A stretch of 64,000 bases of DNA from an uncultured Myxococcales bacterium (GTDB lineage Bacteria; Myxococcota; B64-G9): assembly GCA_964431605.1 (NCBI GenBank), contig CAYSLH010000001.1, positions 22,719 through 86,718 of the forward strand. The letters run 5' to 3'. The stretch's first letter is position 1. Each line of letters starts with the position of its first letter. Both the position numbers and the translations under genes were made by a program. A model generated the notes under the pieces. The model worked only from the letters and a program-made list of their open reading frames with translations. It was not told the DNA's origin and made no database searches. Shown here one piece after another: positions 43,475 through 63,989 of this stretch.

Positions 43475-43499
43475 GCGAACTTCGAAAGCTCTTCCTGAA

Positions 43500-43847
43500 A
43501 AGAGAACCGAAAGGTTCCCTAAAAGTTCACGCCTACTGAAGCGTTGGGAATACCTGCGTGTTCAAAGAGGTGGAAAAAAGTTACAAACCCCTGTTTTTCT
43601 TGTTCTTTATAAAAAAAATAAAATTGGGATAACCAGACTGGGAATAGCGGTGAGCAAAAAGTATGGAAACAGTGTTCAAAGAAACCGCATAAAAAGACTT
43701 GTTCGAGAATCTTTCAGGAGAAACAGACAGCTATTTCCACCGTCGTTGGACATTGTTTTTATTCCAAAAAGAATTAAGAAAACACCTGGATATTCGGAAA
43801 TTGTCGAACAGCTTGGAAAACTTCGTTGGAGGAGGAAAATAAGATGA
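43500..43847 (+). CDS. rnpA: Ribonuclease P protein component RnpA (N-terminal boundary unresolved: no canonical in-frame start)
   Basis: Frame contains [20 protein letters not shown]...[23 protein letters not shown] (RNR motif). The first in-frame ATG (43650) is far too late. A GTG at 43471 is in the +1 frame. Confidence 0.7.
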
Positions 43848-44053
43848 AATGGGTCTTTATTTTCCTTATTAGATTGTACCAGCTGTTGATTTCTCCTCTT
43901 TTAGGACAAAGGTGCAGATTCTATCCAAGTTGTTCCCATTATTCTTTAGAGAGCCTTCAAAGATATGGTTTTTTCAAAGGAAGTTATTTGGCTGTCAAGC
44001 GGATAGTTCGTTGTCATCCATGGAATTCTGGTGGCAATGATCCCGTCCCTTGA
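43844..44053 (+). CDS. yidD: Membrane protein insertion efficiency factor YidD
   Basis: [36 protein letters not shown] signature. ATGA overlap with the rnpA stop. Confidence 0.85.
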
Positions 44054-44090
44054 TTCATAAAGATTTTTCCAACTTCACAATGGTGCTTCG

Positions 44091-45785
44091 ATGGATAAGA
44101 AAACTCTTCTGGCCATAGTAATCTGTGTTGGTATCTGGCTCGTGTGGTCCATGTTTTTCATGGAGACGCCAAAGGAACCTATATCAACAGACGGTGGTGT
44201 TTCCATTAACAGTGAGAAAGTCCAAGGCGCAACAGAAGAAAAATCAAAAGGTTCTGAATTGGCGCAAGATACGGAAAAACCTCCTGAGAACCGGCCGGTG
44301 GAACAAACTGTAAATTTGAAAAATAAATTCATGGTTGCCACGTTTACCACCAGGGGCGCTGCACTAAAGAAACTCCTGTTACCTGAATTCAAGGAACGAG
44401 ACGAGAAAAAGAAGCCTGAAGAGCTTGGACCACAAAACTTGGTCTCCACATCAAATGAAAGCAAATTACCTTTGACCATAAGATTCAGGGATGAAAAGAC
44501 CTCTTTCAAGATAAAAAAATATACAGATTGGCAATTGGTTTCAAAAAATGAGAAAGAGGTTGTTTTCAGGTACTCTAATCCATCGGATCCAACGATTCCC
44601 ACCATAACGAAAAAGTTTTCCATCGAACCGAATTCCTATTCGATGAACTTAGAAGTTACTCTGGACAACAGATCTGATTCCAGCACAACAGAGCAAATGA
44701 TGGTGAATCTCTACGCCTTGTATGCCCCGTCAGTACAAACTGGCTGCGCAGGAGCTCCTTCTCTGCCAAGAACTCCAATGTGTATGAATGGAGATAATGT
44801 AATACCTTCTTCTTCTGGATGCACATCATCGGCAAAGCTCAAACCAGGCGAGGCAAAGAATGCGGAACCAAATATCAACTGGACAGCCATAAACGAGCAG
44901 TATTTCGTGCTTGCGGTTATTCCTACTGGTGTAAAGCAAAGTTTCTGTCACATCGAAGCATTGCAGGACAATTCACTGGTGTCTAGTGTTATGTATCCAG
45001 AAAAAGTAATACCACCTGGGGCTTCCGAAACTCATAAATTCGAGATTTTTGCCGGACCAAAGAGAATGTCTTTGTTGAAAAAGGTAAAAAATGGAAACGG
45101 TGGTGACTCGAAGCTTTCTGCAACAGTAGACTATGGTTGGTTTTCATTTTTATGCCACCCTATGCTGTGGTTGTTGAAGATCTTTTATTCCTTTCTTGGA
45201 AACTATGGATTGGCAATAATTCTTCTTACCATAGTCATTAAAATAGTTCTTTTGCCTTTGACCAATAAGAGCATGAAGAGCATGGCAGAGATGTCGAAAT
45301 TAAAACCGTTGATGGAAGAGCTGAAGCAAAAGTATGGTGATGACAAACAGAAATTAAACCAGGAAATGATGGCTCTTTATAAAACTTATGGAATCAATCC
45401 CATGGGTGGTTGCTTTCCCATGTTGCTTCAGATGCCAATTTGGATAGCTTTATATAGAATGTTGTATTCATCCGTCGAACTCTACCAGGCGCCTTTCATT
45501 CCTGGATGGCTTTCAGATCTTTCATTCAAAGACCCGTATTATATTTTACCGGTGGTATTGGGTGCAGCCATGTTTCTCCAACAGCACATGTCTCCCACTA
45601 GTGCTGATTCACAGCAGGCCAAAATGATGAAATATCTAATGCCCGCTTTTATGACGTTTATAATGATTAACCTACCCAGCGGATTGGTCCTGTACATTTT
45701 GATAAATTCAGTGTTGTCAATTTTTCACCAGATGTATTACAACAAGAAAACCCAAGATCAGGCTATTACCCCTGTTGAAGGTTGA
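44091..45785 (+). CDS. yidC: Membrane protein insertase YidC
   Basis: N-terminal TM, large periplasmic domain, conserved 60KD_IMP core (GLAIILLTIVIKIVLLPLT). Confidence 0.9.
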   Translation: MDKKTLLAIVICVGIWLVWSMFFMETPKEPISTDGGVSINSEKVQGATEEKSKGSELAQDTEKPPENRPVEQTVNLKNKFMVATFTTRGAALKKLLLPEFKERDEKKKPEELGPQNLVSTSNESKLPLTIRFRDEKTSFKIKKYTDWQLVSKNEKEVVFRYSNPSDPTIPTITKKFSIEPNSYSMNLEVTLDNRSDSSTTEQMMVNLYALYAPSVQTGCAGAPSLPRTPMCMNGDNVIPSSSGCTSSAKLKPGEAKNAEPNINWTAINEQYFVLAVIPTGVKQSFCHIEALQDNSLVSSVMYPEKVIPPGASETHKFEIFAGPKRMSLLKKVKNGNGGDSKLSATVDYGWFSFLCHPMLWLLKIFYSFLGNYGLAIILLTIVIKIVLLPLTNKSMKSMAEMSKLKPLMEELKQKYGDDKQKLNQEMMALYKTYGINPMGGCFPMLLQMPIWIALYRMLYSSVELYQAPFIPGWLSDLSFKDPYYILPVVLGAAMFLQQHMSPTSADSQQAKMMKYLMPAFMTFIMINLPSGLVLYILINSVLSIFHQMYYNKKTQDQAITPVEG

Positions 45786-45802
45786 AAAGAAAAGGTGTGA
45801 AC

Positions 45803-46492
45803 ATGATAAAGGAGTTTTTTGGGGACGATTTGCAGGATGCTCTTTCCAATGCGAGTAAAAAATTGGGAATTGACAAGGAATCTATCTCCTATTCAAGGAT
45901 TGAAGGAACCTTTGGTTCTGCTCTCACAGGTGAAAAGATCGGCATACTCGTAACATATGACAAGAAAGAGAAAAAATCCAAAATTCCACAAAAGTCTTCT
46001 GATTTGATGCAGGAATTTGAGAAAATAAGGAACGAACCAAGTGTTGCAACTTCATTCGTGTTGGAAAAGATACTCTCTTCCATGGGTAGCCAAGTGAACA
46101 TCTCAGTAGAAGAAAAAGAAGATTTGGTTCTTCTGTCTGTGGAATTCAAAGGAGAAAAACCTGATACAAGAAAGGGAGACATCAGGGAACTGAGGGGAGC
46201 GCTGCAATATATCATCAATCGTGTTGCAAGTGAGGGAAAAGAAAAGAGCAAAAGATACATAGTTGACTTCAATGGAGACCTGGAAGAAAGAAAGAAGAAG
46301 ATGAAAGAAATAGCCGATGAGCTTGGTTCTTTCGTACAAAAACACAAGCAACCTGTTCACGTAGAACTTATGGATTCTCAAGACAGGAGATTGTTGCACT
46401 TGGCCTTGGAGAACGAAAAAGATATTAAAACATTTTCCCAGGGAGAAGGCAGGTTTAGAGTGTTGTGTATAGAGCCGGGGAAAAAGGATTGA
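45803..46492 (+). CDS. jag: Jag/KhpB RNA-binding protein (Jag_N + KH + R3H)
   Basis: MIKEFFGDDLQDALSNASKKLGI (Jag_N) and a C-terminal R3H-like region. Follows yidC as in many genomes. Confidence 0.75.
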   Translation: MIKEFFGDDLQDALSNASKKLGIDKESISYSRIEGTFGSALTGEKIGILVTYDKKEKKSKIPQKSSDLMQEFEKIRNEPSVATSFVLEKILSSMGSQVNISVEEKEDLVLLSVEFKGEKPDTRKGDIRELRGALQYIINRVASEGKEKSKRYIVDFNGDLEERKKKMKEIADELGSFVQKHKQPVHVELMDSQDRRLLHLALENEKDIKTFSQGEGRFRVLCIEPGKKD

Positions 46493-46756
46493 AAAAGAAA
46501 AAAAAGATCGATCGGTTGAGATCCGCAGCACTGGTGAAAGTCAAATATCTCATGAACACCGGAAAAGCGGATGACGGTTTTCGTATCATTTTTGATGGGG
46601 TACTCAAGGATCTCAAGCTGAGTAGTAAAGAGGTAGATGATTTCATTGAAAAGAACAGGGAAAATCTGACCAGGCAATGCATGGAAGATGGATAATAATT
46701 TTCAGATAGTACTCAAACTCGTAATAGCCTGAATTTCTGTGATAAGAGCCTGAATG

Positions 46757-46770
46757 TTTCCACGTGGAAC
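46757..46770. promoter_or_regulatory. Near-palindrome TTTCCACGTGGAAC 22 bp upstream of mnmG start
   Basis: 13/14 match to the perfect palindrome at 48659-48674. Confidence 0.4.
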
Positions 46771-46791
46771 GTTTTATGACGTGGTAGATCA

Positions 46792-48645
46792 ATGGATCTG
46801 GATTTTGACATAGTAGTTGTTGGTGCTGGTCATGCCGGGTGTGAAGCTGCTCTTGCAGGAGCGAGAACAGGTAAAAGGGTGGCTTTGATAACGTTCGACA
46901 TCGACAGGATAGCAGAGATGTCATGTAATCCTGCAATTGGAGGCCTAGGCAAGAGTCAGATAGTAAGGGAGATAGATGCACTGGGGGGCGAGATGGGAAA
47001 GGCCGCGGATAATGCGGCGATTCATTTCAGAAGACTAAACGAAAGTAGGGGACCAGCAGTAAGAGCCAGGCGTGTTCAGTGCGACATGGGTGACTATCAT
47101 TCTTATATGTTGTCCAAATTGAAAAGCTCTGAAGGAATCCATATCATCGAGGGAGAAGTCAAAGGACTGCTGGTGGAAAACAATGCAGTAAAAGGGGTTA
47201 CTTTTTCATCGAAGGATTTTCCTGAAAAGAGTCTTGCATGTAAAACCGTTGTTTTGACGACAGGAACTTTTCTAAAAGCCATCATGTATACCGGATTGGT
47301 ATCATCCAAGGGAGGGAGGGTAAAAGATGGTAGTGCCGATAATCTCAGCGCGAACCTTGAACAACTGGGACTTTCTCTAGGAAGGCTAAAAACCGGCACT
47401 CCTCCACGACTTGACTCATCTTCCATAGATTTCAGTGAAATGGAAGCACAATATTCTGACAATGAATTACTACCATTCTCCCATGAATCCCAAACTCTTG
47501 ATTCCCGAAGAATGACTGCTGTATGCTACATGACTCGTACCAACGAGGCTGTTCATATTTCCATAAGAAAAGGACTTGACGATTCTCCTCTCTATACCGG
47601 CGTCATCAAGGGTCTTGGACCAAGGTATTGTCCATCCATAGAAGACAAGGTCGTGAGATTTCCTCAAAGATCATCCCACCAGGTAGTCCTCGAGCCAACA
47701 GATGCCACTGGAAAAATAATATACCCCAATGGGATCTCAACAAGTTTGAACCTAGATGTACAAAAAGAGATGGTCAATTCCATACCGGGTCTCGAGAAGG
47801 CAAAGATTATCGTACCTGGTTATGCCGTCGAATATGATTTCGTCTATCCCACTCAGCTATTGCATTCCCTGATGGTCAAAAAGATAAAGGGCATTTTTTT
47901 AGCCGGACAGATAAATGGAACCAGTGGATACGAAGAGGCAGCAGGACAGGGACTTTTAGCGGGAATAAACGCCTCTTTTTTCATAGATGGGGAAAAACCT
48001 CTCGTTCTTGCGAGACATGAGGCATACATAGGTGTGATGATAGATGATTTAGTTACCAGAGGGACAAAAGAGCCCTACAGGATGTTTTCCTCGAGAGCGG
48101 AGTTCAGATTATTGTTGAGAGAGGATAATGCCCTTGAGAGATTAAATCCCTATGCGAAAGCCGTCGGTCTCGTTCCCAGAGAAATAATTGAGCAACGAAG
48201 TGCCAAACTGCAACATGTTGAAAAAATAAATCAAAAACTTTTGAGCATCAAAAAAGTAGAAAAAGGTGGAAAAAGCACGATCCTTGAAAAAATCCTCCGG
48301 AGACCAGGTGTGTCGGTCGATGAAATACTAGAAGATATTTGTGAACTCGATGCACCCAGAGATGTCAGAGAAATGGTCGAGGTCAAGGTGAAGTACAAAG
48401 GTTATATTGAGCGACAAATCAGGGAAGCAAGGCAGTTGAAAAAAAGAGACGCAAAAAAGATCCCCTTGGATTTTAATTTCGAAGGCCTTTCAGGGCTTTC
48501 ATCCGAATTGCTGGAAAAGTTGAAAAAAAACAGGCCTGCCACGCTGGGCGAGGCCAAGGGGATAGACGGAATCACCCCAGCAGCTTTGATGCTCATTTCA
48601 TTGGAAGTGGATCGAAAAAAAAGAAGAGAAAATAAGAAGTATTGA
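46792..48645 (+). CDS. mnmG: tRNA uridine 5-carboxymethylaminomethyl modification enzyme MnmG (GidA)
   Basis: FAD-binding DVVVVGAGHAGCEAALA and a full-length GidA pattern. Confidence 0.95.
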   Translation: MDLDFDIVVVGAGHAGCEAALAGARTGKRVALITFDIDRIAEMSCNPAIGGLGKSQIVREIDALGGEMGKAADNAAIHFRRLNESRGPAVRARRVQCDMGDYHSYMLSKLKSSEGIHIIEGEVKGLLVENNAVKGVTFSSKDFPEKSLACKTVVLTTGTFLKAIMYTGLVSSKGGRVKDGSADNLSANLEQLGLSLGRLKTGTPPRLDSSSIDFSEMEAQYSDNELLPFSHESQTLDSRRMTAVCYMTRTNEAVHISIRKGLDDSPLYTGVIKGLGPRYCPSIEDKVVRFPQRSSHQVVLEPTDATGKIIYPNGISTSLNLDVQKEMVNSIPGLEKAKIIVPGYAVEYDFVYPTQLLHSLMVKKIKGIFLAGQINGTSGYEEAAGQGLLAGINASFFIDGEKPLVLARHEAYIGVMIDDLVTRGTKEPYRMFSSRAEFRLLLREDNALERLNPYAKAVGLVPREIIEQRSAKLQHVEKINQKLLSIKKVEKGGKSTILEKILRRPGVSVDEILEDICELDAPRDVREMVEVKVKYKGYIERQIREARQLKKRDAKKIPLDFNFEGLSGLSSELLEKLKKNRPATLGEAKGIDGITPAALMLISLEVDRKKRRENKKY

Positions 48646-48652
48646 TATTTTC

Positions 48653-49357
48653 ATGAAATGTTCCACGTGGAACAGGATAAGTGCCGTGGCGAATTTTGAA
48701 GAATTTCTCAAACGTGGTGCTGATATACTTGGCATCGAATTACAATATGATGCAATACAGCGCATCAAGATTCATAGGGAACTACTTTTGAAGTGGGCGC
48801 CAAAAGTAAACCTGACGACAGTTTTAGATCCTAAGTCCATGGCAGAAAGGTTATACCTTGATTCAGGAATTCTCCTTCCTAAAATTTCATCTCGAAAAAC
48901 TTTACATGATGTTGGAACAGGAGCGGGTTTTCCAGGGCTTGTTCTTAAAGCACTAAATCCCAAGTTGGATGTGACATTGACAGAGGCAAGAAGAAAGAGG
49001 GTCTCTTTTCTAAAAACAGTTGCAAGACAGATGGGACTCCATGATGGACTGACCATTAGATGGAGCAGATTGGGATGGGAGAAGGGGGAAGAAAAAGTTA
49101 AAAACAAATTTTGGGACGAAGTAGTGTCCAGGGCCACCTTTCCCCCGGATCTCTGGATAGAGGCGGGGAAAAATTTATTGGCTCCAGGATCACGTCTTTG
49201 GGTCATGGCAGGTCAACCCCATGCACAGGGTGATGATTCTCTTAATTGGAAAAACGAGGCGGATAAGAACCATCTTGTCTTAGAGTCACAGGAAGTTTAT
49301 CACTTACCTTTCTGTAAAAAAACCAGGTGGCTTGTGAGCTTTCGCAGAAGCTTGTAA
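48653..49357 (+). CDS. rsmG: 16S rRNA (guanine527-N7)-methyltransferase RsmG (GidB)
   Basis: SAM-binding DVGTGAGFPGL and a GidB core. Confidence 0.85.
   Translation: MKCSTWNRISAVANFEEFLKRGADILGIELQYDAIQRIKIHRELLLKWAPKVNLTTVLDPKSMAERLYLDSGILLPKISSRKTLHDVGTGAGFPGLVLKALNPKLDVTLTEARRKRVSFLKTVARQMGLHDGLTIRWSRLGWEKGEEKVKNKFWDEVVSRATFPPDLWIEAGKNLLAPGSRLWVMAGQPHAQGDDSLNWKNEADKNHLVLESQEVYHLPFCKKTRWLVSFRRSL
48659..48674. promoter_or_regulatory. Perfect 16 bp palindrome TGTTCCACGTGGAACA at codons 3-8 of rsmG
   Basis: Seen in sequence. CACGTG core. A sibling site lies upstream of mnmG. Confidence 0.45.
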
Positions 49358-49448
49358 CTTCTGTTTTTGATTGGATCAACGTATTCAGTTGTGTTACAAA
49401 AACAATCCTGTTTTGGACTGATTATTTCGAAAAAGGATATTTTTCTAA

Positions 49449-50213
49449 ATGGGTCGAATCATCGCCATAGCGAATCAAAAAGGTGGAGTAGGAAAGACCA
49501 CTACAGCCATCAACCTGGCAGCTTCTCTGAGTGTGGCTGAGCGTCCCGTGTTGTTGGTGGATTGTGATCCACAGGCAAACGCTACAACAGGCTTGGGTTT
49601 TTCCAGGGATGAGCAGCGGAGAAATCTTTATCACGTGTTGTTGAATGAATCTACCATCGACGAAGTGACAGTATTGACGGACCTGGAAAATCTCAGACTA
49701 GTTCCTTCTGATTCAAATCTCATCGGTGCGGAAGTAGAACTTGTGGACATGCAAGGAAGGGAGAGTCTCCTGAAAAATGCCCTTGAGAAAGTCAAGGATC
49801 AGTACGAATATATTATTCTAGACTGCCCCCCGTCGTTGGGTCTTTTGACCATCAATGCGTTAGCCGGTGCGGATGGAGTGCTTGTTCCTTTACAATGTGA
49901 ATATTACGCACTGGAGGGTTTGAGTTCCCTGGTTCAGACCATAGAGATGATTCGAAAAGGCTTGAATGATTCTCTTGAGATCGATGGGATTCTTTTGACT
50001 ATGTTTGATGTTCGAAACGCAATTTCTCATTCCGTGGCAAATGAAGTTAAATCGTATTTTAAAGGAAAGGTGTTCAATTCGACCATACCTAGAAACGTCA
50101 GGCTTTCCGAAGCTCCTTCGTTTGGTAAGCCGGTCATGTTATATGATCCGAGATCTCGGGGATCAGAAAGCTATCTTGCTTTGGCCAAAGAAATTCTATC
50201 ATCATCTAACTAG
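49449..50213 (+). CDS. parA: Chromosome partitioning ATPase ParA (Soj)
   Basis: Deviant Walker A KGGVGKTT. Confidence 0.9.
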   Translation: MGRIIAIANQKGGVGKTTTAINLAASLSVAERPVLLVDCDPQANATTGLGFSRDEQRRNLYHVLLNESTIDEVTVLTDLENLRLVPSDSNLIGAEVELVDMQGRESLLKNALEKVKDQYEYIILDCPPSLGLLTINALAGADGVLVPLQCEYYALEGLSSLVQTIEMIRKGLNDSLEIDGILLTMFDVRNAISHSVANEVKSYFKGKVFNSTIPRNVRLSEAPSFGKPVMLYDPRSRGSESYLALAKEILSSSN

Positions 50214-50233
50214 TTGTTTTATAAGGTGTTATA

Positions 50234-51112
50234 ATGTCATCAGCTAAAAGAAAGGCTCTGGGAAAAGGACTCAAGGCTCTTATTCCTGTAAACGAAGATA
50301 AGACATCTTCAAAGCAGCCCAGCGGGTTGTTTCAATGCCCCATAGACAAGCTCGTGCCTAACGAAAATCAGCCAAGGCAGAGTTTTGATAACTCCAAGCT
50401 GGAAGACCTAACCGAAAGCGTCAGGTCAAAGGGCGTGATACAACCGCTCGTAGTAAGAGCATTGGGTGATGGAATGTTTCAGGTCGTTGCTGGTGAACGA
50501 AGATGGAGAGCGTCGAAATTGGCAGGTCTGGAAAAAGTTCCAGTCGTGGTAAAGAACCTGTCTGGAACGGAGATGTTGGAAATTGCGCTCATAGAAAATA
50601 TTCAGCGCGAGGATCTGAATCCTTTGGAAGAAGCGGAGGCGTACCGCCAGCTCATCGAGGAGCATGGCTTGACCCAGGAAGGTTTGGCGAAACGGGTTGG
50701 AAAACAAAGGTCGTCTGTTGCCAACGCTCTTCGGCTTTTGAAGCTGCCGCAGGAGGTTCAAAAATTTTTACTTACGGGAGAACTATCCATGGGACACGCC
50801 AGGGCAATCCTTGGCGCTCAGGGACAGAGTAAACAAAAGGCTCTGGCAAGAAAGGTGGTTAGAGACGGACTGAGCGTTCGGGCTTGTGAGGAGATGGTTA
50901 GAAGCGCAACATCTCAAAAGAGCGGGCCCAAGCGAGGTTCTTTGAAACAATCAGTTCTCAACGTTACACAGAGGAGATTGGTGGAGGAGTTGCAGCGACG
51001 TTTTGGTACCAAGGTAGACTTGCAAAAGGGTCGAAAGGGTGGAAAATTGATAATACATTATTTTTCTGATGGAGAACTGGATAGGATTCTTCAGGTAATC
51101 CAGGGGAATTAA
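50234..51112 (+). CDS. parB: Chromosome partitioning protein ParB (Spo0J)
   Basis: ParB box GERRWRA and HTH (GLTQEGLAKRVGKQRSSVANALRLL). Confidence 0.9.
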   Translation: MSSAKRKALGKGLKALIPVNEDKTSSKQPSGLFQCPIDKLVPNENQPRQSFDNSKLEDLTESVRSKGVIQPLVVRALGDGMFQVVAGERRWRASKLAGLEKVPVVVKNLSGTEMLEIALIENIQREDLNPLEEAEAYRQLIEEHGLTQEGLAKRVGKQRSSVANALRLLKLPQEVQKFLLTGELSMGHARAILGAQGQSKQKALARKVVRDGLSVRACEEMVRSATSQKSGPKRGSLKQSVLNVTQRRLVEELQRRFGTKVDLQKGRKGGKLIIHYFSDGELDRILQVIQGN

Positions 51113-51114
51113 AA

Positions 51115-51624
51115 TTGGCTTTATTTAAAAAAGAAAAGACCGAACCAGAACTAACGGTGGAAAAAGTCCAAATTCCGTCTGGCCAAAATAAAAACAAGGC
51201 CGTCACCAGGAGGGAGCATACCGTGAGTCTCAAGACCGACGAGATAACAACGATTCTTGGAAAAGGATCCGAGTTCGAGGGCAAATTGAATTTTGAAGGA
51301 ACGTTACGGATCGAGGGAGTTTATTCCGGAGAAATCATCTCCGACTCGGTTCTGGTGGTTGGTGAGGGAGCCAAGGTAAATGCTGAAATCGATATTGGTA
51401 CCATTGTGGTCAATGGTCAGGTTACTGGAAACATCCGAGCAAAGCAGGGTGTGGAAATTCGTGGTTCAGGACGCGTGGTAGGTAATATCGAAACACCGTC
51501 TCTCTATATTGAAAAGGGAGTGGTTTTCGATGGAACATGTAAAATGGGCGGTGCGGGAAAAAAGGAATCGTTCATAAAAGAAGCCAAAGCAGCACCAAAG
51601 ACAGAAGAGAAGGAAAAAAAATAG
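51115..51624 (+). CDS. Bactofilin (DUF583) cytoskeletal protein
   Basis: Beta-helical bactofilin repeats (VVGEGAKVNAEIDIGTIVVNGQVTGNIRAKQGVEIRGSGRVVGNIE). TTG start 3 nt after the parB stop. Lys/Glu-rich C-terminal tail. Confidence 0.8.
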   Translation: MALFKKEKTEPELTVEKVQIPSGQNKNKAVTRREHTVSLKTDEITTILGKGSEFEGKLNFEGTLRIEGVYSGEIISDSVLVVGEGAKVNAEIDIGTIVVNGQVTGNIRAKQGVEIRGSGRVVGNIETPSLYIEKGVVFDGTCKMGGAGKKESFIKEAKAAPKTEEKEKK

Positions 51625-54898: not shown

Positions 54899-56359
54899 TT
54901 ACAAGCATACTGGTAACATTACCATGTGAGAGGTGCTTTGGCAGGTTTTTCCATCAGGGCATGGGTGTTCAATATCGCAGTATGCCCTGCAGTAATATTC
55001 AAAAGGATCGGAAGTATTTGGTTCCAATACACAATCAAGACCAGGAGCACAAAATTGGGTCATATCACTACAATCATCGCCTTCCTGCAGAGAACCAGGC
55101 ATCCAGCATTCGGTGGTTCCAGCCTCTGGGTCTGAGTAGTAGCATGCAGATTCTTCACCAGAGCATCCAGTCTGTAAAATTGGATCGCATCCGGGTCTGC
55201 ATACACCCCATGAGGTACCCAGTTCTGGCCAGGCCCAAACACAGTGTTGATCAGGCGAGGTACATTCCGATGCATTTTCGCAGTAACTTACGCAGGTTCC
55301 ATCAAGACAGATCAATCCAGCCTGGCAATCGGAAGAAGAGCAGTCTCCCCCTTCCTGTACATTCCCTGCAGGCAGACAGAAAAACACTCCGAAGTTTGAC
55401 ATGGTGCAGCGCTCGCCCTGTTCGCAGCCTTCAGCAGGTGGTTCACACGTGGCACAATGGGCTGTGCCGTCCTGAGGTTGCTGGCAAAACTGGTTTGATT
55501 CGGTACAATCTTGGGAGTCCCGCCAATATTTACAACTGTCAGCTCCTAGTTCACAACGTTGGATGGTAAACAAGTTACATCTTAGAGCATCCACCGTATC
55601 ACATTCATCGGTGCAGCCTTGCTGGCAGACAGGAACATCGCCTGAGTCGTCACAGTGTTTGTTGTCAGCTGCACAGTCAGTGGTATCGGCCCAATCAAGA
55701 CAACCCGAGTTGTCAGCGGTACATGTCTGGATAACATCACCTGAACACCTGAGGTCTCCTGCGGTATCACACTTGTTTACACATTCCTGGTTACAGACAG
55801 GAACATCGCCCGAGTCGTCACAATGTTCGTTGTCAGCAGCACAGTCAGTAGTGTCCGACCAGTCCAAACAGCCGGCGTCATCAGCGGCGCATGTCTGGAT
55901 AACATCCCCCGAGCACCTGAGGTTCCCTGCGGTATCACACTTGTTTACGCATTCCTGGCTACAGACAGGAACATCGCCCGAGTCGTCACAGTGTTTGTTG
56001 TCAGCTGCACAGTCAGTGGTGGTGGCCCAAACAAGGCAACCATCCTGACCTTCTTTGCAGGTTTGCAGCTTATCTTCAGAACATCGTGTTTCACCCTGTT
56101 TGTTACACATGTCCACACAGACACATTGACCCGAAGAACAAGTACGATTTCCATCACACGAATCTGTTTGTGTCCACACCAGGCAACCGTCTGCGTTCAT
56201 GGAACATGTCTTGACGGATTTCAGGTCTGAGGAACATTTCGTCTCATCTATTTTTTCGCAAGGGTTTTGTATTCCCAGACATTTGTCTTGCTCGTTGCTT
56301 GTACCACAGGAGATTTCTAAAAATGAAAAACCAACGAACAGGAGAATAGACAGTTTCAT
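54899..56359 (-). CDS. Cysteine-rich repeat lipoprotein (56 aa repeats CVNKCDTAGxLRCSGDVIQTCxADxxGCLDWxDTTDCAADNxHCDDSGDVPVC)
   Basis: GGAGG RBS then ATG at 56359. Lipobox FLEISC. At least 4 Cys-rich repeat units, and a C-terminal Cys-rich domain. Confidence 0.65.
   Translation of the reverse strand: MKLSILLFVGFSFLEISCGTSNEQDKCLGIQNPCEKIDETKCSSDLKSVKTCSMNADGCLVWTQTDSCDGNRTCSSGQCVCVDMCNKQGETRCSEDKLQTCKEGQDGCLVWATTTDCAADNKHCDDSGDVPVCSQECVNKCDTAGNLRCSGDVIQTCAADDAGCLDWSDTTDCAADNEHCDDSGDVPVCNQECVNKCDTAGDLRCSGDVIQTCTADNSGCLDWADTTDCAADNKHCDDSGDVPVCQQGCTDECDTVDALRCNLFTIQRCELGADSCKYWRDSQDCTESNQFCQQPQDGTAHCATCEPPAEGCEQGERCTMSNFGVFFCLPAGNVQEGGDCSSSDCQAGLICLDGTCVSYCENASECTSPDQHCVWAWPELGTSWGVCRPGCDPILQTGCSGEESACYYSDPEAGTTECWMPGSLQEGDDCSDMTQFCAPGLDCVLEPNTSDPFEYYCRAYCDIEHPCPDGKTCQSTSHMVMLPVCL
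55628..56035 (-). repeat. In-frame 168 bp tandem repeats (about 2.4 copies at DNA level; copies start at 55628, 55796, 55964)
   Basis: Units align with only scattered substitutions. Each encodes one 56 aa Cys-rich module. Confidence 0.85.
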
Positions 56360-56416: not shown

Positions 56417-57916
56417 TCAATCCCTCATGGAAAAAATGGTAAATACATGATCATCGACCTTAGCGCAGAAAGCCTTATGGTGTTGGTTTTCGACCAGTAC
56501 TTCACAATTGTCTCCAGCAATTTGGATAACCTGGATCAAATCGAATGCTTTTGCAAGGCTTATATCCAGGGCCTTGGCTGCTGCCTCTTTTACCGTCCAA
56601 ACTCGGACGGCAGCTTCAGTGGCGCCTAATACTGATTTTGAAACCAGTTCTTGTTCTTTCTTGCTAAGAAATAACCTTGAACTCCTGATCACTTTTTCCG
56701 AGAGCATTTCCACGTCGATCCCGATGGGGTATGGGCTGGAGACGGCAATTGCAAAGCGAGGATCATGAGATGCAGCACAGTACCTGGCAGAATCATCTGA
56801 AGATGATAAGATTGGATGAACAAGATCTTCGGCAAGGGTCTCGATTTTCGAACCAGGAGTGCTCCAGTCATCAGATAGCTGTCGTGTCAGAAGTTTCAAG
56901 GCTATCCTGGCACTTCCAAAATCTCTGGCCCTTTTAGGTCCCAAATTACTCCAACGTTTTTTTTCATGGCTCGTAAATATGTAATCATAAAAATCGCACA
57001 TGGAATCCAGGTCCAGGACTGTCAATCCGGTACACACATCTCGCAACCTGGCGAGGGGATCTTCAAGAGAGTCTTTTCGTATCCACTCAGCGGGAGTGAT
57101 CCTTCCAGACGAAACATCCCTGAACTCTGTGTCCATGCATGCTTCTGCCAGGATGCCATCTTTGCGGAAGATGAAGATGTGGAAAAAGAGAGTTTCTCCT
57201 TTTTTCCCTGCAGGAAGGATTCGGCACCAGTATTTTTCACCTGTTTTGCAGGGTGAGTTTACAAACCTCTCCCCGTATCCCACGGGAAAGGTCAGCAATC
57301 CTTCGTACCTTTGTCCCCAGGCGCAAGCTAAGTGGAATGCTCCATCGAGGACGAAAACATTGCCTAGTGGGCCCCAAGGTGTGCGATGTTCGGCCGCGAA
57401 AATTTTCGCCACGGCTCCTGCCTCAGATAGAAAAACAGGTCCGGTAACATTTTGAAAAGAAGGTCCAAATGGAACCAGATCCTTATAGAGTTTTTGTGAC
57501 GAAAACCTTATTCCCACGCCCTCCAGGGCGACAGCCCTTTCTTTGAGAAGGTCAACAGGATCATGAGTACTCGCCTTAGTGCTGGAACCAAAACTTACTT
57601 CAACATGCTTCAGTGTTCTGCTAATTCCTGTTTTTCCAGCTTTTGTGTGAGAGAGCAGATTAGCCTTGATTGCATTTTTAGTTGGATGCAACTCCACAGA
57701 AGCTTTTACAATTGAGGATTCGGGAGGCAGGGGTAGAAACCGGTTGAATCTGGCATTGTGTGAAAACAAGACATTCGGTGGATTTGCGATATCTGACGCA
57801 CAGGTGGCCAAGTATTGAATTGATTCAACCGCTGGAAGAATGGATTTCCCCTCGAATTTATGATCCCTCAAATAAGGGGAGTTGGGGATGTCCAAAGGAA
57901 TTTTTTTTTGGTTCAT
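56417..57916 (-). CDS. Fusion protein: N-terminal PKS-type double-hotdog dehydratase-like domain + C-terminal AcpS/Sfp-type 4'-phosphopantetheinyl transferase
   Basis: HxxxGxxxxP motif (HKFEGKSILPAV) and downstream DxxxH (LDGAFHLA) typical of PKS DH. C-terminal PPTase motifs GIDVE and WTVKEAAAK. ATGA overlap with the upstream thioesterase. Confidence 0.65.
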   Translation of the reverse strand: MNQKKIPLDIPNSPYLRDHKFEGKSILPAVESIQYLATCASDIANPPNVLFSHNARFNRFLPLPPESSIVKASVELHPTKNAIKANLLSHTKAGKTGISRTLKHVEVSFGSSTKASTHDPVDLLKERAVALEGVGIRFSSQKLYKDLVPFGPSFQNVTGPVFLSEAGAVAKIFAAEHRTPWGPLGNVFVLDGAFHLACAWGQRYEGLLTFPVGYGERFVNSPCKTGEKYWCRILPAGKKGETLFFHIFIFRKDGILAEACMDTEFRDVSSGRITPAEWIRKDSLEDPLARLRDVCTGLTVLDLDSMCDFYDYIFTSHEKKRWSNLGPKRARDFGSARIALKLLTRQLSDDWSTPGSKIETLAEDLVHPILSSSDDSARYCAASHDPRFAIAVSSPYPIGIDVEMLSEKVIRSSRLFLSKKEQELVSKSVLGATEAAVRVWTVKEAAAKALDISLAKAFDLIQVIQIAGDNCEVLVENQHHKAFCAKVDDHVFTIFSMRD

Positions 57917-58419
57917 TGTTTAGCGGATTTTTCAGTTATGGGATTTGGGAATGTCTCCCAGGTTTTTACCGTAATGGGATCCACCGCCGTTGGCTTTCCC
58001 TTTTCGTTCAGAGCGCAATGAAGAGTATGTCCAATACAAACCAATTGGTTAGTCTCTGCGTGGATGATGACATATTCGAACTTGACCCGAACTCTCTCCA
58101 GATCGGCTGGCCTGGTGTGAATGAGCATGGGGCTGTCATATTTCAGTGGAAGGAAGTATTTCAATCCCAGGTCAACGATGGGATAGATGTAACCTGAGTC
58201 TTCTACCTGAGAGTATGGAAATCCTATGTCCCTCATCAACGAAGCGCGTCCCAACTCGAAGTACCTGAGATAATTTGCATGATATACGATTCCAGACCTG
58301 TCCGTGTCAGCGTATAGCACGCGATTGAAAACTTGATGGTATACCAAGCCAGTGGTTTTATCTTTAACAAACCTCTTGTCGCCGTTATGGGTCACAGGTA
58401 CAAAAGGAGGAGGTCGCAT
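57913..58419 (-). CDS. Hotdog-fold acyl-CoA/acyl-ACP thioesterase (4HBT/YbgC-like)
   Basis: YADTDRSGIVYHANYLRYFELGR matches the 4HBT catalytic region. 168 aa. Confidence 0.7.
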   Translation of the reverse strand: MRPPPFVPVTHNGDKRFVKDKTTGLVYHQVFNRVLYADTDRSGIVYHANYLRYFELGRASLMRDIGFPYSQVEDSGYIYPIVDLGLKYFLPLKYDSPMLIHTRPADLERVRVKFEYVIIHAETNQLVCIGHTLHCALNEKGKPTAVDPITVKTWETFPNPITEKSAKQ

Positions 58420-58421: not shown

Positions 58422-59687
58422 TTATACACCTTTGAATATTACGCAGCAGTTGGTGCCGCCGAATCCAAACGAATTGGACAAGGCAATCTCAACATTCGCT
58501 TTCCGTGGTTTGTTGGGCACCACATCAATGTCGGAAAGAGAAGGATCTTGCAAGTGATTGACCGTGGGTAGAATTATACCTTTTCTCATTCCCTCGATGG
58601 TCAAAGCGGCTTCAATGGCGGCCGAGGCACCTAGGGTATGGCCAAGCATGGACTTATTGGACGAGACAGGAAGGTTTTCCAGGTGTGGACCAAAAACCTC
58701 CCTGAGGCAATTGGCTTCTGTGGAGTCACCTCTTGGTGTGGATGTTCCATGGGCGTTTACGTAGTTCACATCTGAAGGAGAGATATTCGCGTCATCCATA
58801 GCGTCTCTCATGGCCTTTATGATGGTAGGAGCGTTGGGTTTGGTGAAATGATATGCGTCCGATGTCCACCCGATGCCCAAAACTTCGGCCTTCGGTTCTA
58901 ATCCATGAGCCTTTAGGGCATCTTCAGAAGCCAGGAGCACCACACCTGCGCCTTCGCTGAGCACGAATCCCTTTCTGTCAGAGGAAAAGGGGCGCGATGC
59001 CTTCGTTGGATCATCTACTGCCCTGTCACCTTCCTTTATTTTTATGGTAGCGCCCATGTTTGCAAAACCGTGGATTATCTCGGGGAGAATGGGTGTGTCC
59101 ACGCCTCCTGCCAACACGAAGTCCTGGTCTCCGTCCCGAATCAATCTGGCTCCTACTCCAATGGCATGATTGCCGGACGCGCAGGCTCCTTGAGGAGAAA
59201 AATTGAGTCCCTGGAATCCCAGGAGCATTCCCGCTTTTCCAGCTGGTAAATTCCCACAGAGGTTCGGCAGAAGGTATGGGCTGACCCGGTTGGGGCCCTG
59301 GTGTTCGAGAGCTTCCACGGCCGCCCGGTATGCATCGTGACCATTGAGGGCGGAGCCGATGAGGGAGGCTGTTCTTGGTGCTATGTCCGGGGTGATTTCC
59401 AACTTGGCGTCAGCAAGGGCATCCTTACAAACAGCCACGGTCAACAGGACAAAAGAAGCGTTCCAATTATAGACTTCTTTTTGTGAGGTGAACTCTTCGT
59501 CCAAAGGATCCCAATCAGGGATTTCCCCCACAACGTCGCACGGGCTTTTCACCTTGCACCTTGTAACTTTTCTGAAACCGGCCTTTGCTTTCATGGCATT
59601 TTGCCAGGTTGTCTGAAAATGCCGCCCAAGTGGAGTGGCGACAGCATATCCGACTACGAAAACTCTTCTGTTCAAAGGCGCCCTCAT
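58422..59687 (-). CDS. Beta-ketoacyl-ACP synthase (FabF/KASII-like, Cys-His-His triad present)
   Basis: Active-site GACASGNHAIG, His motifs NAHGTSTPRGD and MLGHTLGAS, C-terminal FGFGGTN. Confidence 0.85.
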   Translation of the reverse strand: MRAPLNRRVFVVGYAVATPLGRHFQTTWQNAMKAKAGFRKVTRCKVKSPCDVVGEIPDWDPLDEEFTSQKEVYNWNASFVLLTVAVCKDALADAKLEITPDIAPRTASLIGSALNGHDAYRAAVEALEHQGPNRVSPYLLPNLCGNLPAGKAGMLLGFQGLNFSPQGACASGNHAIGVGARLIRDGDQDFVLAGGVDTPILPEIIHGFANMGATIKIKEGDRAVDDPTKASRPFSSDRKGFVLSEGAGVVLLASEDALKAHGLEPKAEVLGIGWTSDAYHFTKPNAPTIIKAMRDAMDDANISPSDVNYVNAHGTSTPRGDSTEANCLREVFGPHLENLPVSSNKSMLGHTLGASAAIEAALTIEGMRKGIILPTVNHLQDPSLSDIDVVPNKPRKANVEIALSNSFGFGGTNCCVIFKGV

Positions 59688-59720
59688 TGGGCTTCTCCTG
59701 CAAGCGTTATGGAGGATGAA

Positions 59721-61010
59721 TTATGCCACCGGGCCAAGAACCACACAAGCATTGCATCCACCGAATCCAAAAGCATTTTTTAGAACCCAGCGTGGTTCAT
59801 ACTCCACCGCATGGTCAAAAACATTAACTAACCCAAGTTCCTTGTCTGGACTAAGATTGATGGTGGGGGGCAGTGTTTTTCTTTCCATGGATTTTTGCGC
59901 CATCACTAATTCTATGGCGCTCGAAGCGCCCATGCAGTGACCAATGAGCGATTTATTTGCCGTAATGATTGGATGATTTGAACCAAAGAGCTCTAATATG
60001 CTTTTTGCTTCAACCGAATCTCCTACCTTCGTGGATGCGGCATGGGCGTTTATGGCACTGATGTCAGATGGGCCTATGCCGGCATGTTCAATTGCTTGAG
60101 CCATGCATCTTGTGACAGTGACTTGGTTTGGCGCCACGAAATGATGGGCATCAGAAGTCATGGCCCATCCTGCAACGGTTGCTAGTGGTGTCAGGGAGTG
60201 TTCTTTTGCAAAGTTTTTGCTACAGATTATTATGGCTGCCGCTCCTTCGGATATTACAAAACCTCTGCGATTGGAAGAAAAGGGGCGACTGGCTGAAACC
60301 GGCGGCTCAGGTTGGTCTTTTTTTGTCCTGTACGCTCCGTTCATGGTGGCAAATCCTGCCACGATGGGTTCCACCAACGGGAAATCCACTGCCCCGCAAA
60401 TTGCCACGTCTGCCATGCCTGCCTGGATGAACATGGCTCCGGTTATTAGAGATGTGCTTCCAGTGGCACATGCGGTAATGGATGTGGTGATGGGTCCGGT
60501 GGCTCCGGAAAGAATGGAGACTTTTCCCGCAACCATGTTAATGCATGAATTTGGATTGACGAATGGATGTGGAAGTTTTCCCTTTTCTCTCAGTTGTCTG
60601 TCTGCGAAAAGAACAGCGTCGAGACCACCGATAGCGGTAGAAAAGGTGGTGGCCACTCTAGGTGAAATCTCTGGGCTGATTTCCAGCTTGGCTTGTTTCA
60701 AAGCTCGATGAACCACGAGAAGGGAGTGTTTGAATACTGGAGAAAACCAGTGAGCCATCTTGCGTGGCTTGAGGAATTCGTATGAACTGGTATCAATATC
60801 CGGCACCTGTCCTGCAATGGTCACAGGAAAAGTTTCAGGGAGCGTAAACCGGGTCAATGGCCCAATACCACTTTTACCTTCCTCGGCATTGTTTATCTGC
60901 TCTTCGATCTGTGTTCCCAATGGGGTGAGCATATCCATGCCCACTATGACAGGACGATTATCCATAAGAAAAAGTAGCCTACCAGGGGAGGAACCTGTAT
61001 AGCTTGGCAA
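59721..61010 (-). CDS. Second beta-ketoacyl-ACP synthase paralog (active-site Cys retained, so not a CLF)
   Basis: TACATGSTS (Cys), NAHAASTKVGD, LIGHCMGAS, FGFGGCN. Start uncertain (60962 or 61010); overlaps the rSAM gene end. Confidence 0.8.
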   Translation of the reverse strand: MPSYTGSSPGRLLFLMDNRPVIVGMDMLTPLGTQIEEQINNAEEGKSGIGPLTRFTLPETFPVTIAGQVPDIDTSSYEFLKPRKMAHWFSPVFKHSLLVVHRALKQAKLEISPEISPRVATTFSTAIGGLDAVLFADRQLREKGKLPHPFVNPNSCINMVAGKVSILSGATGPITTSITACATGSTSLITGAMFIQAGMADVAICGAVDFPLVEPIVAGFATMNGAYRTKKDQPEPPVSASRPFSSNRRGFVISEGAAAIIICSKNFAKEHSLTPLATVAGWAMTSDAHHFVAPNQVTVTRCMAQAIEHAGIGPSDISAINAHAASTKVGDSVEAKSILELFGSNHPIITANKSLIGHCMGASSAIELVMAQKSMERKTLPPTINLSPDKELGLVNVFDHAVEYEPRWVLKNAFGFGGCNACVVLGPVA

Positions 61011-61977
61011 ACATTTCGTAAACGGTGATCCAGTTTTGGAGATCTTTTGTCGATTGCATGTGGGCGCGTTTGTTTACCATCACCCAACTCATATGTGCCG
61101 CACCGTCCATGCAGGTCGAGCAGTCTCTTGTTTGAGAGGTACAACAGCGGTGAGTGGTTTGAAGGTCAGATGCCCATCTGATGAATCGTATGAGGCGTTT
61201 GGGCTGCGGATCCCTCGTATCCCAGTTAATGGATACGGAGGGACACTCTTTCCATCCGAACTTTCTGCCCAGCATGGTCTGGGTGGTGAGTACTTCATGA
61301 TAGTAGTGCGAAGAAATGACGGTCCGGGGATACTTGATCAACATCTCGTCCATTTCTTCCCTTGCCTGTTTGAGTTGGTCTTGTGTCCAACTAAAGCCAT
61401 CCACTCCTTCGTCGTTGGAAAGAAGCTGCATGTGCACTTTCAAACCGCAGTCGTCGATCCGTTTTACTATGGGTTCGATGGAACCGAGTTGTCTGGGAGA
61501 AATGGTAAACAGGTAGTAAGTGTAGTCATCACCCTCGTAATTTTTGGAAGATATGGCAAACGTGTCTTTTCCCCTGAGCTTTTTTTCCACTTCGGGATCT
61601 CCCCAAAGAGAGATACCCACCATCATGTCGGGAAACTTTTCCCTGTCTACTTTGATGAGCCCGTTGGTGGCACAATATGTTGGCAACCTATCGTAAAAAG
61701 CCGCCACACGATCCAGATACAGGGTTGGCTCTCCTCCGATCAGAATTGCCAGGTTGACACCGCGTTGGACTTCTTTATCTATGAATTCTTTCCATTTTTC
61801 CACGTCGTCCTGTTCTTGTGCAGCCTTGTGTTCACCAGAAGAGAAGAAAAAGCAACCCTTGCAGCGAAGGTTGCACTTGTTGGTCACATCGTAGATGGAT
61901 GAACGAATATTCAGTTTGGAAATTCGCTTGTATCTTTCATACCACTCTTTGTCCAAAAGAGAGCTAACAGTTTTCAT
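60979..61977 (-). CDS. Radical SAM protein (CNLRCKGC) with Cys-rich C-terminal region
   Basis: CxxxCxxC at about residue 37, then GGEPTL. C-terminal CC..C..C cluster (RCCTSQTRDCSTC). AGGTGA RBS. Confidence 0.8.
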   Translation of the reverse strand: MKTVSSLLDKEWYERYKRISKLNIRSSIYDVTNKCNLRCKGCFFFSSGEHKAAQEQDDVEKWKEFIDKEVQRGVNLAILIGGEPTLYLDRVAAFYDRLPTYCATNGLIKVDREKFPDMMVGISLWGDPEVEKKLRGKDTFAISSKNYEGDDYTYYLFTISPRQLGSIEPIVKRIDDCGLKVHMQLLSNDEGVDGFSWTQDQLKQAREEMDEMLIKYPRTVISSHYYHEVLTTQTMLGRKFGWKECPSVSINWDTRDPQPKRLIRFIRWASDLQTTHRCCTSQTRDCSTCMDGAAHMSWVMVNKRAHMQSTKDLQNWITVYEMFAKLYRFLPW

Positions 61978-62027: not shown

Positions 62028-63143
62028 CTACACGGGTACGAGGTCGAATCCGGGAGGAGGTACCAATTGCGATTGGAGATTCTCATCCTTTTCGTATCCC
62101 ATCACCCATACGGCCAAGTAAGTATCTACATAGTCGAGCCACGCTTTGAAATGTTGCGGGTCTTTTGCATGTCCATGGAGCCTGGCGGTCACAACTGCTG
62201 AACCAGCAGCATAATGCCTGCAATCGGCACAATCCGTATCAGGAACACAGCAGGCTACACCTCGATCCCAGTTCAGATCGGTCCTGTATTGTCTGAAAGA
62301 TCTCCCCAACCCTATGTGGGTGGATGGATTCATGCGGGGATAAGGACATTTATACAGAGCATGCAAGCCCTTTCGATGTGTATGAACCACGGCGGAATAT
62401 GGAGAAAAGAGCACGTTTTCTGGGTAGCGTTTCATGAGTTCCATCATGGAGTTTCTGGTCGCAACCAGTGATTGTTCATCGTGCCTAAGTGGTCCATCAT
62501 ATCCCACAGTAGAAGAGAACATGTTGAATGTCACTTTGAAATCATGTTGTGCCAACAGTCGCACTACCTCATCAGCTTCTGCAATGTTTTCCCTCGTATA
62601 GGTAAAGACGAAAACTGCCCTGTCATCTCCCTCGTAGTTTTCCATCTGCCTGACGAGGAGATCCTTCGCTCGTCTGATCTTCTGGCTGGTCTCGTCGTTT
62701 CCCCACACGGAGATGTGAATCTTGTATCCTACGGACCGGGGGATGTGCTTTACTCCATTTGTCGCAATACTTCCCAGAGGCATTTCTTCATAACACACAT
62801 CGAGCAGGTCCGGCACCAGGGCTGGTTCGGCTCCAGCCAGTACCACATACGTGATACCTCTGGCTTTTTCCTGTCTCATGAGAGCGCGCCAGGATTCAGT
62901 CTCCCTGTTCTCCTTGGCGAACTGCTTTTCTCCTTCGAAATAATAACAGCCGTCACAACGAATGTTACACCGGTTGGACATGTCGTATGTAGATTCTCTC
63001 AGAAAAAAGTATTTTCGGACTTTTTCCCATCTTCGGCGGACAGGGTCTTGCTCGAGCAACTGGGAGAATTTCCACTTTTGTCCAGCTTTGCCCGGGGGCC
63101 TAAAGTCCAACAATTCGCCTGTAGCTTGAGAGGATCCAGACAT
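62028..63143 (-). CDS. Radical SAM protein paralog (CNIRCDGC) with Cys-rich C-terminal region
   Basis: CxxxCxxC and AGAEPAL. C-terminal CCVPDTDCADC. Paralogous to the 60979-61977 gene. Start set at the first ATG (the track begins at TTG 63209). Confidence 0.75.
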   Translation of the reverse strand: MSGSSQATGELLDFRPPGKAGQKWKFSQLLEQDPVRRRWEKVRKYFFLRESTYDMSNRCNIRCDGCYYFEGEKQFAKENRETESWRALMRQEKARGITYVVLAGAEPALVPDLLDVCYEEMPLGSIATNGVKHIPRSVGYKIHISVWGNDETSQKIRRAKDLLVRQMENYEGDDRAVFVFTYTRENIAEADEVVRLLAQHDFKVTFNMFSSTVGYDGPLRHDEQSLVATRNSMMELMKRYPENVLFSPYSAVVHTHRKGLHALYKCPYPRMNPSTHIGLGRSFRQYRTDLNWDRGVACCVPDTDCADCRHYAAGSAVVTARLHGHAKDPQHFKAWLDYVDTYLAVWVMGYEKDENLQSQLVPPPGFDLVPV

Positions 63144-63196: not shown

Positions 63197-63433
63197 TCAG
63201 TCCATACAATCTTTGATGTACTTGGCGATGAGACGGACGTTCTTGAGTTTCGGATAATCATCTTCGTCGATGGTTATGGAGTATTCGTCCTGCAGCACAA
63301 GCACCACCGCAGTCAGATCCATGGAGTCGATTCCCAATTCATCGACCAGGTCCAGGTTCTTGTCAAAAGATTCTGGAGTGACATCTTCCAGTTTGAGTTC
63401 TTCAATGATAATTTGCGCTACCCGGTTTTCCAT
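63197..63433 (-). CDS. Acyl carrier protein
   Basis: 78 aa, LGIDSMDL phosphopantetheine attachment motif, acidic helical protein. Confidence 0.8.
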   Translation of the reverse strand: MENRVAQIIIEELKLEDVTPESFDKNLDLVDELGIDSMDLTAVVLVLQDEYSITIDEDDYPKLKNVRLIAKYIKDCMD

Positions 63434-63623
63434 GGTGTCTGATTCTAGCTTCATCGCAGTTGCTTCCATTGCTATACCTCTCCGTGTATCAGTTACCAAT
63501 TCGTTGATTTCCCCGTAACGTTCTCGCCTAACATCAATCTAGTCACCCTGTCAAGCTATTCACGTTTTGTACATTTGACGGCAATAGCATGTTTTTATTT
63601 CAAAGGAGACATCTGGTCCCTTC

Positions 63624-63989
63624 TCAGCCTACTTCCATCCTGCCGTCACCAACCCTTTCTCCTTGTCTGTTGATCTCGAACTTCACTGAATATAGCGAGT
63701 TTTTTTCCGATTCGTGGGTGATTTCACACCGGACTTCAATGTGTTGACCGGGCAGGACAAGACTCCTGATCCTGCTTTTGGGTATGGTCTTCAGATGCAG
63801 GTTGGGCTTCTTTGTCGAAAGTCTGACCAGGTTCAGTACGATATAGATGATGGCCAGCGCGGGAAGAATGGGTTTTTGGGGAAAATGCCCGTCAAACCAG
63901 GGAGAATCAGAAGAAAGGCTCAAGTCGGTCGAAAACGAGTTTTTCCCAACTTCTTTGATTTTCATGTCAGGTTGCCAGGAAGATGTCAT
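63624..63989 (-). CDS. FabZ/FabA-like hotdog beta-hydroxyacyl-ACP dehydratase
   Basis: FDGHFPQKPILPALAI catalytic His motif. About 115-120 aa. Confidence 0.7.
   Translation of the reverse strand: MTSSWQPDMKIKEVGKNSFSTDLSLSSDSPWFDGHFPQKPILPALAIIYIVLNLVRLSTKKPNLHLKTIPKSRIRSLVLPGQHIEVRCEITHESEKNSLYSVKFEINRQGERVGDGRMEVG

Follow-up and report, generated by a model that had tools for sequence, protein, structure and literature searches.

The present study reveals that a single gene of an uncultured Myxococcales bacterium joins a polyketide synthase (PKS)-type dehydratase (DH) and a 4'-phosphopantetheinyl transferase (PPTase) in one polypeptide. The gene, DH-PPTase, occupies positions 56417..57916 (minus strand) of the 64,000-nucleotide stretch of DNA analysed here (the window; GenBank assembly GCA_964431605.1, contig CAYSLH010000001.1) and stands at the end of a tightly packed minus-strand operon of type II fatty-acid/polyketide-like genes. 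An initial annotation of this DNA had proposed such a fusion from the letters of the sequence, and our analysis upholds it: there is one open reading frame (ORF), and both active sites are intact and conserved. The same fusion, sought in other genomes, was found in 43 of them, and it is evolutionarily optional. The protein is probably a bifunctional, free-standing didomain, in which the fusion serves the co-expression of the enzyme that primes the acyl carrier protein (ACP).

The gene encodes 499 amino acids followed by a stop codon (56417-56419) in a single uninterrupted ORF, and its full-length homologues are likewise ~500 amino acids long. On the minus strand, the PKS-type double-hotdog dehydratase domain covers residues 1 to ~282 (57071..57916), an interdomain linker of ~8 residues follows (~283-290; 57047..57070), and a two-lobed Sfp-type PPTase domain fills the C-terminal part (residues ~291-499; 56420..57046). 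A split of 350 + 130 amino acids, as originally given, is therefore wrong, since the two domains measure ~282 and ~210 residues. The AlphaFold2 model, built on an alignment of 28 family members, reaches a predicted local distance difference test (pLDDT) score of 91.9 and a predicted template modelling (pTM) score of 0.90. The linker is visible as a dip in pLDDT and as gaps and variability in the alignment; residues 267-288 have no regular secondary structure in the model, with pLDDT down to ~79-88. Two independent marks of the boundary come from natural homologues: DH-only proteins end at residue ~280, and stand-alone PPTases align from residue ~276-288. The position of the junction is constant across all fused members of the alignment. 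That the fusion is an artefact of two merged adjacent genes, of assembly or of a frameshift was rejected and has next to no probability. An ENA metagenome contig of independent origin (L081, which is 99.96% identical to the window across 17.6 kb) and a Logan contig each encode the identical protein in one gene, and the in-frame fusion recurs in dozens of genomes, as detailed below. Databases hold automatic names only for such proteins, the NCBI one being 'polyketide synthase dehydratase domain-containing protein'.

The N-terminal domain is a sequence-divergent member of the PKS-type dehydratases (PS-DH; PF14765/PF21089). As the initial annotation had supposed, structure prediction gives this part the shape of a double hotdog, modelled over ~280 residues. 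When the model was searched against the PDB with Foldseek, the top matches were PKS dehydratase domains only, including MlnB, CurJ/K/H/F, a MAS-like PKS, PpsC and several DHs of trans-acyltransferase (trans-AT) systems, with E values of 1e-12 to 1e-15 and target-normalised template modelling scores of 0.65-0.75 over ~280 columns. The profile of the DH family reaches solved PKS DHs at E=2e-6, and in the profile alignment the His motif, YGP, DxxxH/Q and an LPFxW-like motif are all in register with 5hst, 7zmf and 8qk4. Specifically, the HxxxGxxxxP motif is HKFEGKSILP (H19-P28; 57833..57862, minus), which aligns with the His motif of the MlnB, PksJ and BGC11 DHs and carries the predicted catalytic His19. 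The DxxxH motif is DGAFH (D191-H195; 57332..57346, minus), which aligns with the DxxxQ of solved PKS DHs and carries the predicted catalytic Asp191. H19, Y144 and D191 are invariant across the 73 family members analysed, and H195 occurs in 72, the exception being a Q that still conforms to DxxxH/Q. PF14765 was not reported for the window protein in the Pfam search; many of its homologues have precomputed PF14765/PF21089 matches. Since the window DH is below threshold in Pfam, structure prediction and profile alignment are the basis of its assignment.

The C-terminal ~210 residues are predicted to be a complete two-lobed Sfp-type (group II) PPTase, i.e., a pseudo-dimer. The domain search proposed in the initial annotation succeeded for this half of the protein and fell short for the other: PF01648 (ACPS) scores 47.5 bits on residues 397-491 (E=2.2e-12; cut-off 25 bits). 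NCBIfam gave only weak matches to the EntD, HetI and AusB types, which are generic PPTase families. When a profile of residues 284-499 was searched, each half separately matched chains of the AcpS fold, and Sfp was matched across both halves. The GIDVE motif (G399-E403; 56708..56722, minus) provides the Mg2+-binding Asp401 and Glu403, equivalent to D107 and E109 of Sfp ('GIDIE'). The WTVKEAAAK motif (W440-K448; 56573..56599, minus) provides Glu444 and Lys448, equivalent to E151 and K155 of Sfp ('WSMKESFIK'), and H384 aligns with Sfp H90. All 43 fused members retain K341 and R345, and 42 of the 43 retain H384, D401, E403, W440, K443, E444 and K448. All four motifs that had been quoted, two in each half, are therefore present at the residues given above, and those of the PPTase lie inside a well-folded PPTase domain. 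A degenerate or partial PPTase of 130 residues was rejected, since neither lobe is missing and the catalytic residues have been conserved. The state of the catalytic residues in DH and PPTase, intact and conserved, indicates that both active sites are under purifying selection.

In a genome scan, 161 stretches contained relatives, and 80 loci were retained from these. Of the 73 family members analysed, 43 carry the fusion and the other 30 consist of the DH alone. These DH-only proteins terminate within a few residues of a conserved 'MRDVSGGR..PP.W' motif, no PPTase ORF lies behind their genes, and they sit in an otherwise identical gene cassette. Two longer or odd-sized candidates, L070 (1014 aa) and L048 (389 aa), were rejected as further fusions because a stop follows right after the DH domain in both. 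In a neighbour-joining tree of the DH domain the fused forms are intermixed with the DH-only ones: L053_S is the sister of L020_F, L044_S and L057_S fall among L005_F and L010_F, and L060_S groups with L018_F and L024_F. Read most simply, this speaks for an old fusion after which the PPTase was lost repeatedly; the PPTase is a dispensable add-on in the cassette. Furthermore, an exhaustive hidden Markov model search of 1.84 billion representatives with a profile of the PPTase domain delimited a discrete clade, with 158 proteins at E<=1e-30 versus 27,947 at E<=1e-3. In the top 150 of this clade, a full DH precedes the PPTase in 66, another 31 show a partial N-terminal region and are probably truncated ORFs, and 53 are stand-alone proteins or fragments; the longest representative has 553 aa. 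The fusion is present in at least 66 clusters at 50% identity. It is common within its niche, and the clade, judged by these matches, appears not to be the PPTase that is embedded in megasynthases.

Stand-alone PPTases of ~232 aa were seen in L072, L074, L075 and L077 (at ~9500-10600 in each), 38-45% identical to the fused module and members of the same clade. Their genes are divergently oriented next to a different hot-dog thioesterase (TE), a ketosynthase (KS) is also present in L072 and L077, and tblastn found no genes of the radical SAM cassette near them. They may serve another cluster of fatty acid synthase (FAS)-like genes or, alternatively, DH-only cassettes in trans.

From the sequence we infer activities, ACP substrates and a reason for the fusion as follows. 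With Mg2+, the PPTase domain would transfer the 4'-phosphopantetheine arm from CoA to the serine of the two ACPs of the cassette, ACP2 (DSM) and ACP1 (DSI). The DH domain would use His19 and Asp191 to dehydrate ACP-bound 3-hydroxyacyl intermediates, which would arise from the two KSs of the operon and a ketoreductase from elsewhere. The fusion itself would ensure that a dedicated ACP primer is co-expressed and co-inherited with the pathway. The PPTase has repeatedly been lost or acquired in a cassette that otherwise did not change, which probably favors co-expression and co-inheritance over an obligatory mechanistic coupling. The suggestion in the initial annotation that carrier-protein priming is physically coupled to a chain-processing step found no support in our analysis, and the interleaved DH tree together with DH-only forms in an otherwise identical cassette argues against coupling being obligatory.

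Three observations weigh against the reading preferred here. PF21089 (PKS_DH_N) scores only 17.9 bits on residues 12-80, under its gathering cut-off of 27. The neighbour-joining tree carries no support values, so that losses or gains cannot be counted with certainty. The pTM of 0.90 hints at a fixed arrangement of the two domains, which could mean functional coupling. The last point leads to a true mechanistic coupling, in which DH and PPTase would act as one rigid platform for ACP docking, either handing the primed ACP straight to chain processing or using the DH to recruit apo-ACP for the PPTase. With a linker of only ~8 residues, the modelled pTM suggests a defined interdomain interface; the constant junction and the persistence of the fusion in many lineages point the same way. 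In contrast, 30 of the 73 family members do without the PPTase in an otherwise identical cassette and are interleaved with the fused forms. Furthermore, an ACP is primed once whereas dehydration takes place in every cycle, so that coupling would offer no obvious kinetic gain and channelling no kinetic reason. We therefore consider such coupling doubtful. Similarly doubtful is a grander version, in which DH-PPTase would be the self-priming scaffold subunit of a widespread anaerobic 'secondary lipid synthase', the rigid didomain being needed for assembly or activation of the complex in those lineages that retain it and the pair of radical SAM enzymes modifying the ACP-bound acyl chain by chemistry so far undescribed for ketoacyl lipids. 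If this were true, the fusion would give Rosetta-stone access to a new lipid pathway, along with a ready-made heterologous activator of its ACPs.

Another explanation leaves ACP priming to the PPTase and assigns the DH fold a different role, such as enoyl isomerase, cyclase/product template, or a chain-length-specific DH that works beside the small FabZ-like DH of the cassette, like the two DH types of polyunsaturated fatty acid synthases. An Asp is typically missing from enoyl isomerases, and the DH dyad from pyran synthases. In our family, the catalytic His, the catalytic Asp and the four canonical DH motifs are all found and are essentially invariant, which makes another role unlikely. Lastly, the PPTase might load the starter unit by transferring acyl-phosphopantetheine from acyl-CoA onto one apo-ACP, while the adjacent TE, which is translationally coupled to DH-PPTase, would edit mis-loaded ACPs. 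To our knowledge, no natural pathway relies on PPTase starter loading. The core cassette has no acyltransferase (AT), FabH-type loader or CoA ligase, a lack that would thereby be compensated, and it has two distinct ACPs. Sfp-type enzymes do take acyl-CoAs in vitro (PMC10139942). However, the idea is purely speculative, DH-only cassettes would be left without a loader, and housekeeping FabD and FabH could serve instead; we regard it as very improbable. Co-expression of the ACP primer with its pathway thus stays the preferred explanation of the fusion.

The cassette around the gene has the order (ACP)-hotdog DH-ACP-rSAM-rSAM-KS-KS-YbgC TE-DH(-PPT), where rSAM stands for radical SAM, and all its genes described here lie on the minus strand. 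Directly upstream of DH-PPTase lies a YbgC/4HBT hot-dog TE (57913..58419), which matches PF13279/PF03061 and TIGR00051 above cut-off and whose stop codon overlaps the DH-PPTase start (ATGA). This neighbourhood of TE and DH(-PPT) holds in most fetched loci, with exceptions that include L002-type loci. No obvious Shine-Dalgarno sequence was seen at the overlap (57895-57916), and an A9 homopolymer follows the third codon of the DH-PPTase gene; it is possibly prone to slippage and lies far from the domain junction. Scans for promoters and terminators around the gene gave counts not above those of shuffled sequence. Further upstream are two FabF-like KSs with intact Cys-His-His triads, KS_B (58422..59687) and KS_A (59721..61010; start at 60965 by the gene caller). 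Two radical SAM proteins follow: rSAM_B (60979..61977; 332 aa, PF04055) and rSAM_A (62028..63143; 371 aa by the gene caller).

ACP2, which has a DSM serine motif, was annotated at 63197-63433 and is confirmed by PF00550, the gene caller extending it to 63197..63469. A small FabZ/ApeI-like single-hotdog dehydratase (63624..63989; PF07977/PF22818) lies upstream of it. Directly upstream of this hotdog gene, just past window position 64000, is ACP1 (80 aa, DSID motif; L081 3675-3917), and in L081 two ABC-transporter genes precede ACP1 on the same strand. The cassette therefore has two different ACPs, both with a DS(I/M)D serine motif. No second PPTase was found within the window. Since the cassette, followed through the window and its L081 extension, contains no ketoreductase and no acyltransferase, those functions must come from elsewhere. 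Unlike the KS/chain length factor (CLF)-like pair of anammox bacteria, both KSs of the window (58422-61010) have full triads.

The whole or partial cassette is present in ~70 of the 80 kept loci, as judged by tblastn with each window gene. These loci come mostly from Desulfobacterales, Syntrophales and other Desulfobacterota, with some metagenome-assembled genomes (MAGs) of Myxococcota and Spirochaetota; the closest of them, with 60% identity, is a 'Myxococcales' MAG. Most loci have an rSAM_B of 70-77% identity; the KSs are mostly ~55-70% identical and DH-PPT only 30-40%, which makes the latter the fastest-evolving member of the cassette. Among the best 120 of 1,876 clusters at 90% identity, rSAM_B is essentially always 332 aa long and 75-84% identical; these clusters span Desulfobacterota, Spirochaetota and others, and include the cultured Desulfosarcina widdelii and Smithella. 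The other cassette genes are conserved far less than rSAM_B, whose family is uncharacterised, with generic 'radical SAM' names only among these best 120. Regarding orthology of the radical SAM proteins to Kuste3342/3343 and DP1853/1855, the homologue search likewise gave only generically named proteins among the best 120. Extra genes stand between TE and DH(-PPT) in L002, L004, L008, L013, L016 and L050, among others. In L002, the one annotated, they (6275-9947) encode a third KS, a PlsC-type acyltransferase (PF01553) and a B12-binding radical SAM protein. The PlsC and B12-rSAM genes of L002 suggest a modified fatty acyl chain destined for glycerolipids. The product of the cassette is thus probably a fatty acyl chain modified by the radical SAM enzymes for use in membrane lipids.

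Two further regions of the window deserve mention. After a 57-nt gap, DH-PPTase is followed by a gene for a Cys-rich protein of ~486 aa (54899-56359, minus), which has an N-terminal hydrophobic, lipoprotein-like leader and no Pfam match. Its positions 55626-56021 form a 168-bp tandem repeat (2.4 copies, 87% matches) encoding Cys-rich modules of 56 aa. This Cys-rich protein also follows DH-PPTase in the closest relative, L001 (69% identity), and tblastn found it in no other fetched locus. Besides, homologues of gidA, gidB, parA and parB lie on the plus strand at 46792-51112. Within ~36000-51200 the cumulative GC skew has its minimum at ~40-44 kb, and GC content is 0.38-0.41 between 36 and 46 kb. 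These genes, the skew minimum and the dip in GC content together suggest a chromosomal replication origin in the window.

The fusion leaves the view of carrier-protein priming unchanged, as integrated PPTases are already known in enediyne PKSs and fungal FAS. What it does is to mark the dedicated PPTase of an orphan cassette that is very widespread among sulfate-reducing and syntrophic Desulfobacterota and also among Myxococcota and Spirochaetota. Heterologous reconstitution of the cassette would want the cognate PPTase, which is here attached to the pathway DH. The polymorphism between fused and unfused forms provides a natural experiment on when a pathway needs a PPTase of its own. The orphan cassette with its pair of radical SAM enzymes, for which the fused PPTase would be a useful handle, is a more interesting object than the fusion.

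The initial annotation called the architecture non-standard, which is true in part. Our literature search, made over 8 million papers, found no description of a discrete DH-PPTase didomain. However, a fusion found in 43 of 73 family members and at least 66 clusters is hardly a rarity, and enediyne PKSs (PKSE) provide a precedent (PMC9992847). The architecture is therefore an undescribed variant of a PPTase fused to a PKS catalytic domain, recurrent, evolutionarily optional and mechanistically unsurprising. In PKSE, the KS, AT, ACP, ketoreductase, DH and PPTase lie on one chain that phosphopantetheinylates itself (PMC9992847) and works with a discrete hot-dog thioesterase (PMC3107222). PKSE (SgcE, CalE8 and DynE8, with the TEs SgcE10, CalE7 and DynE7) is the closest characterised precedent: in both systems the DH precedes a C-terminal PPTase, and the window also has an adjacent hot-dog TE gene. 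The window protein is no PKSE, however: PKSE is a six-domain type I megasynthase, and the window protein a free-standing didomain of 499 aa with KS and ACP as separate genes. Host phyla differ too, and so do the radical SAM genes that accompany the fusion. No enediyne PKS model was among the NCBIfam matches of the window protein. A direct relationship to PKSE is not shown: as the best 150 PPTase-clade representatives include no megasynthase and no enediyne model was matched, the resemblance would be architectural, either convergent or very distant.

Stand-alone Sfp-type PPTases (Sfp, PcpS, EntD, PptT and AASDHPPT) differ from the window PPTase, which is fused behind a DH and belongs to its own discrete clade. 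The DH domains of trans-AT and cis-AT PKSs (MlnB, CurJ/K, PksJ DH1 and MAS-like DH) share with the window DH the double hotdog and the HxxxGxxxxP, YGP, DxxxH/Q and LPFxW-like motifs. However, the window DH is a discrete type II protein rather than one embedded in a module, and identity to these domains is just 12-18%. The alpha subunit of fungal type I FAS, which builds a 2.6-MDa barrel, also has a PPTase built into the synthase, and the second lobe of the window PPTase matches its PPT region. Yet the fungal PPT is an AcpS-like single lobe placed after the KS in a subunit of ~1,880 aa, whereas the window PPTase is two-lobed and placed after a DH in a protein of 55 kDa.

As for the cassette as a whole, syntenic gene clusters of Kuenenia and deltaproteobacteria (Desulfotalea/Geobacter) were described by Rattray et al. 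2009 (PMC2649909), and orphan clusters in Desulfobacterota and Myxococcota carry the antiSMASH label 'ladderane' (PMC9902471). Likened by published description, the window cassette appears to belong to this orphan 'ladderane-like' cluster type. The papers cited here on ladderane-type clusters mention no DH-PPTase, and the term 'phosphopantetheinyl' occurs 0 times in Rattray et al. (PMC2649909). In anammox cluster I (amxACP, amxFabZ, amxFabF2/FabFmut, PDH, B12-rSAM), the FabF pair (amxFabF2/amxFabF-mut) is KS/CLF-like with one mutated triad (bioRxiv 10.64898/2026.05.19.726425). Identity with this cluster was rejected, as both KS triads of the window are intact and neither the window cassette nor L081 contains a phytoene-dehydrogenase-like (PDH) or B12-rSAM gene. 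The two rSAMs of the window are without a B12 domain, and a B12-rSAM is present in relatives such as L002, which links the cassette to the anammox-type B12-rSAM; other large ORFs besides the B12-rSAM also lie near relatives' cassettes. A thematic similarity to anammox cluster I remains: in both, a dedicated ACP, a FabZ-like DH, two FabF-like KSs and radical SAM enzymes are gathered in one operon.

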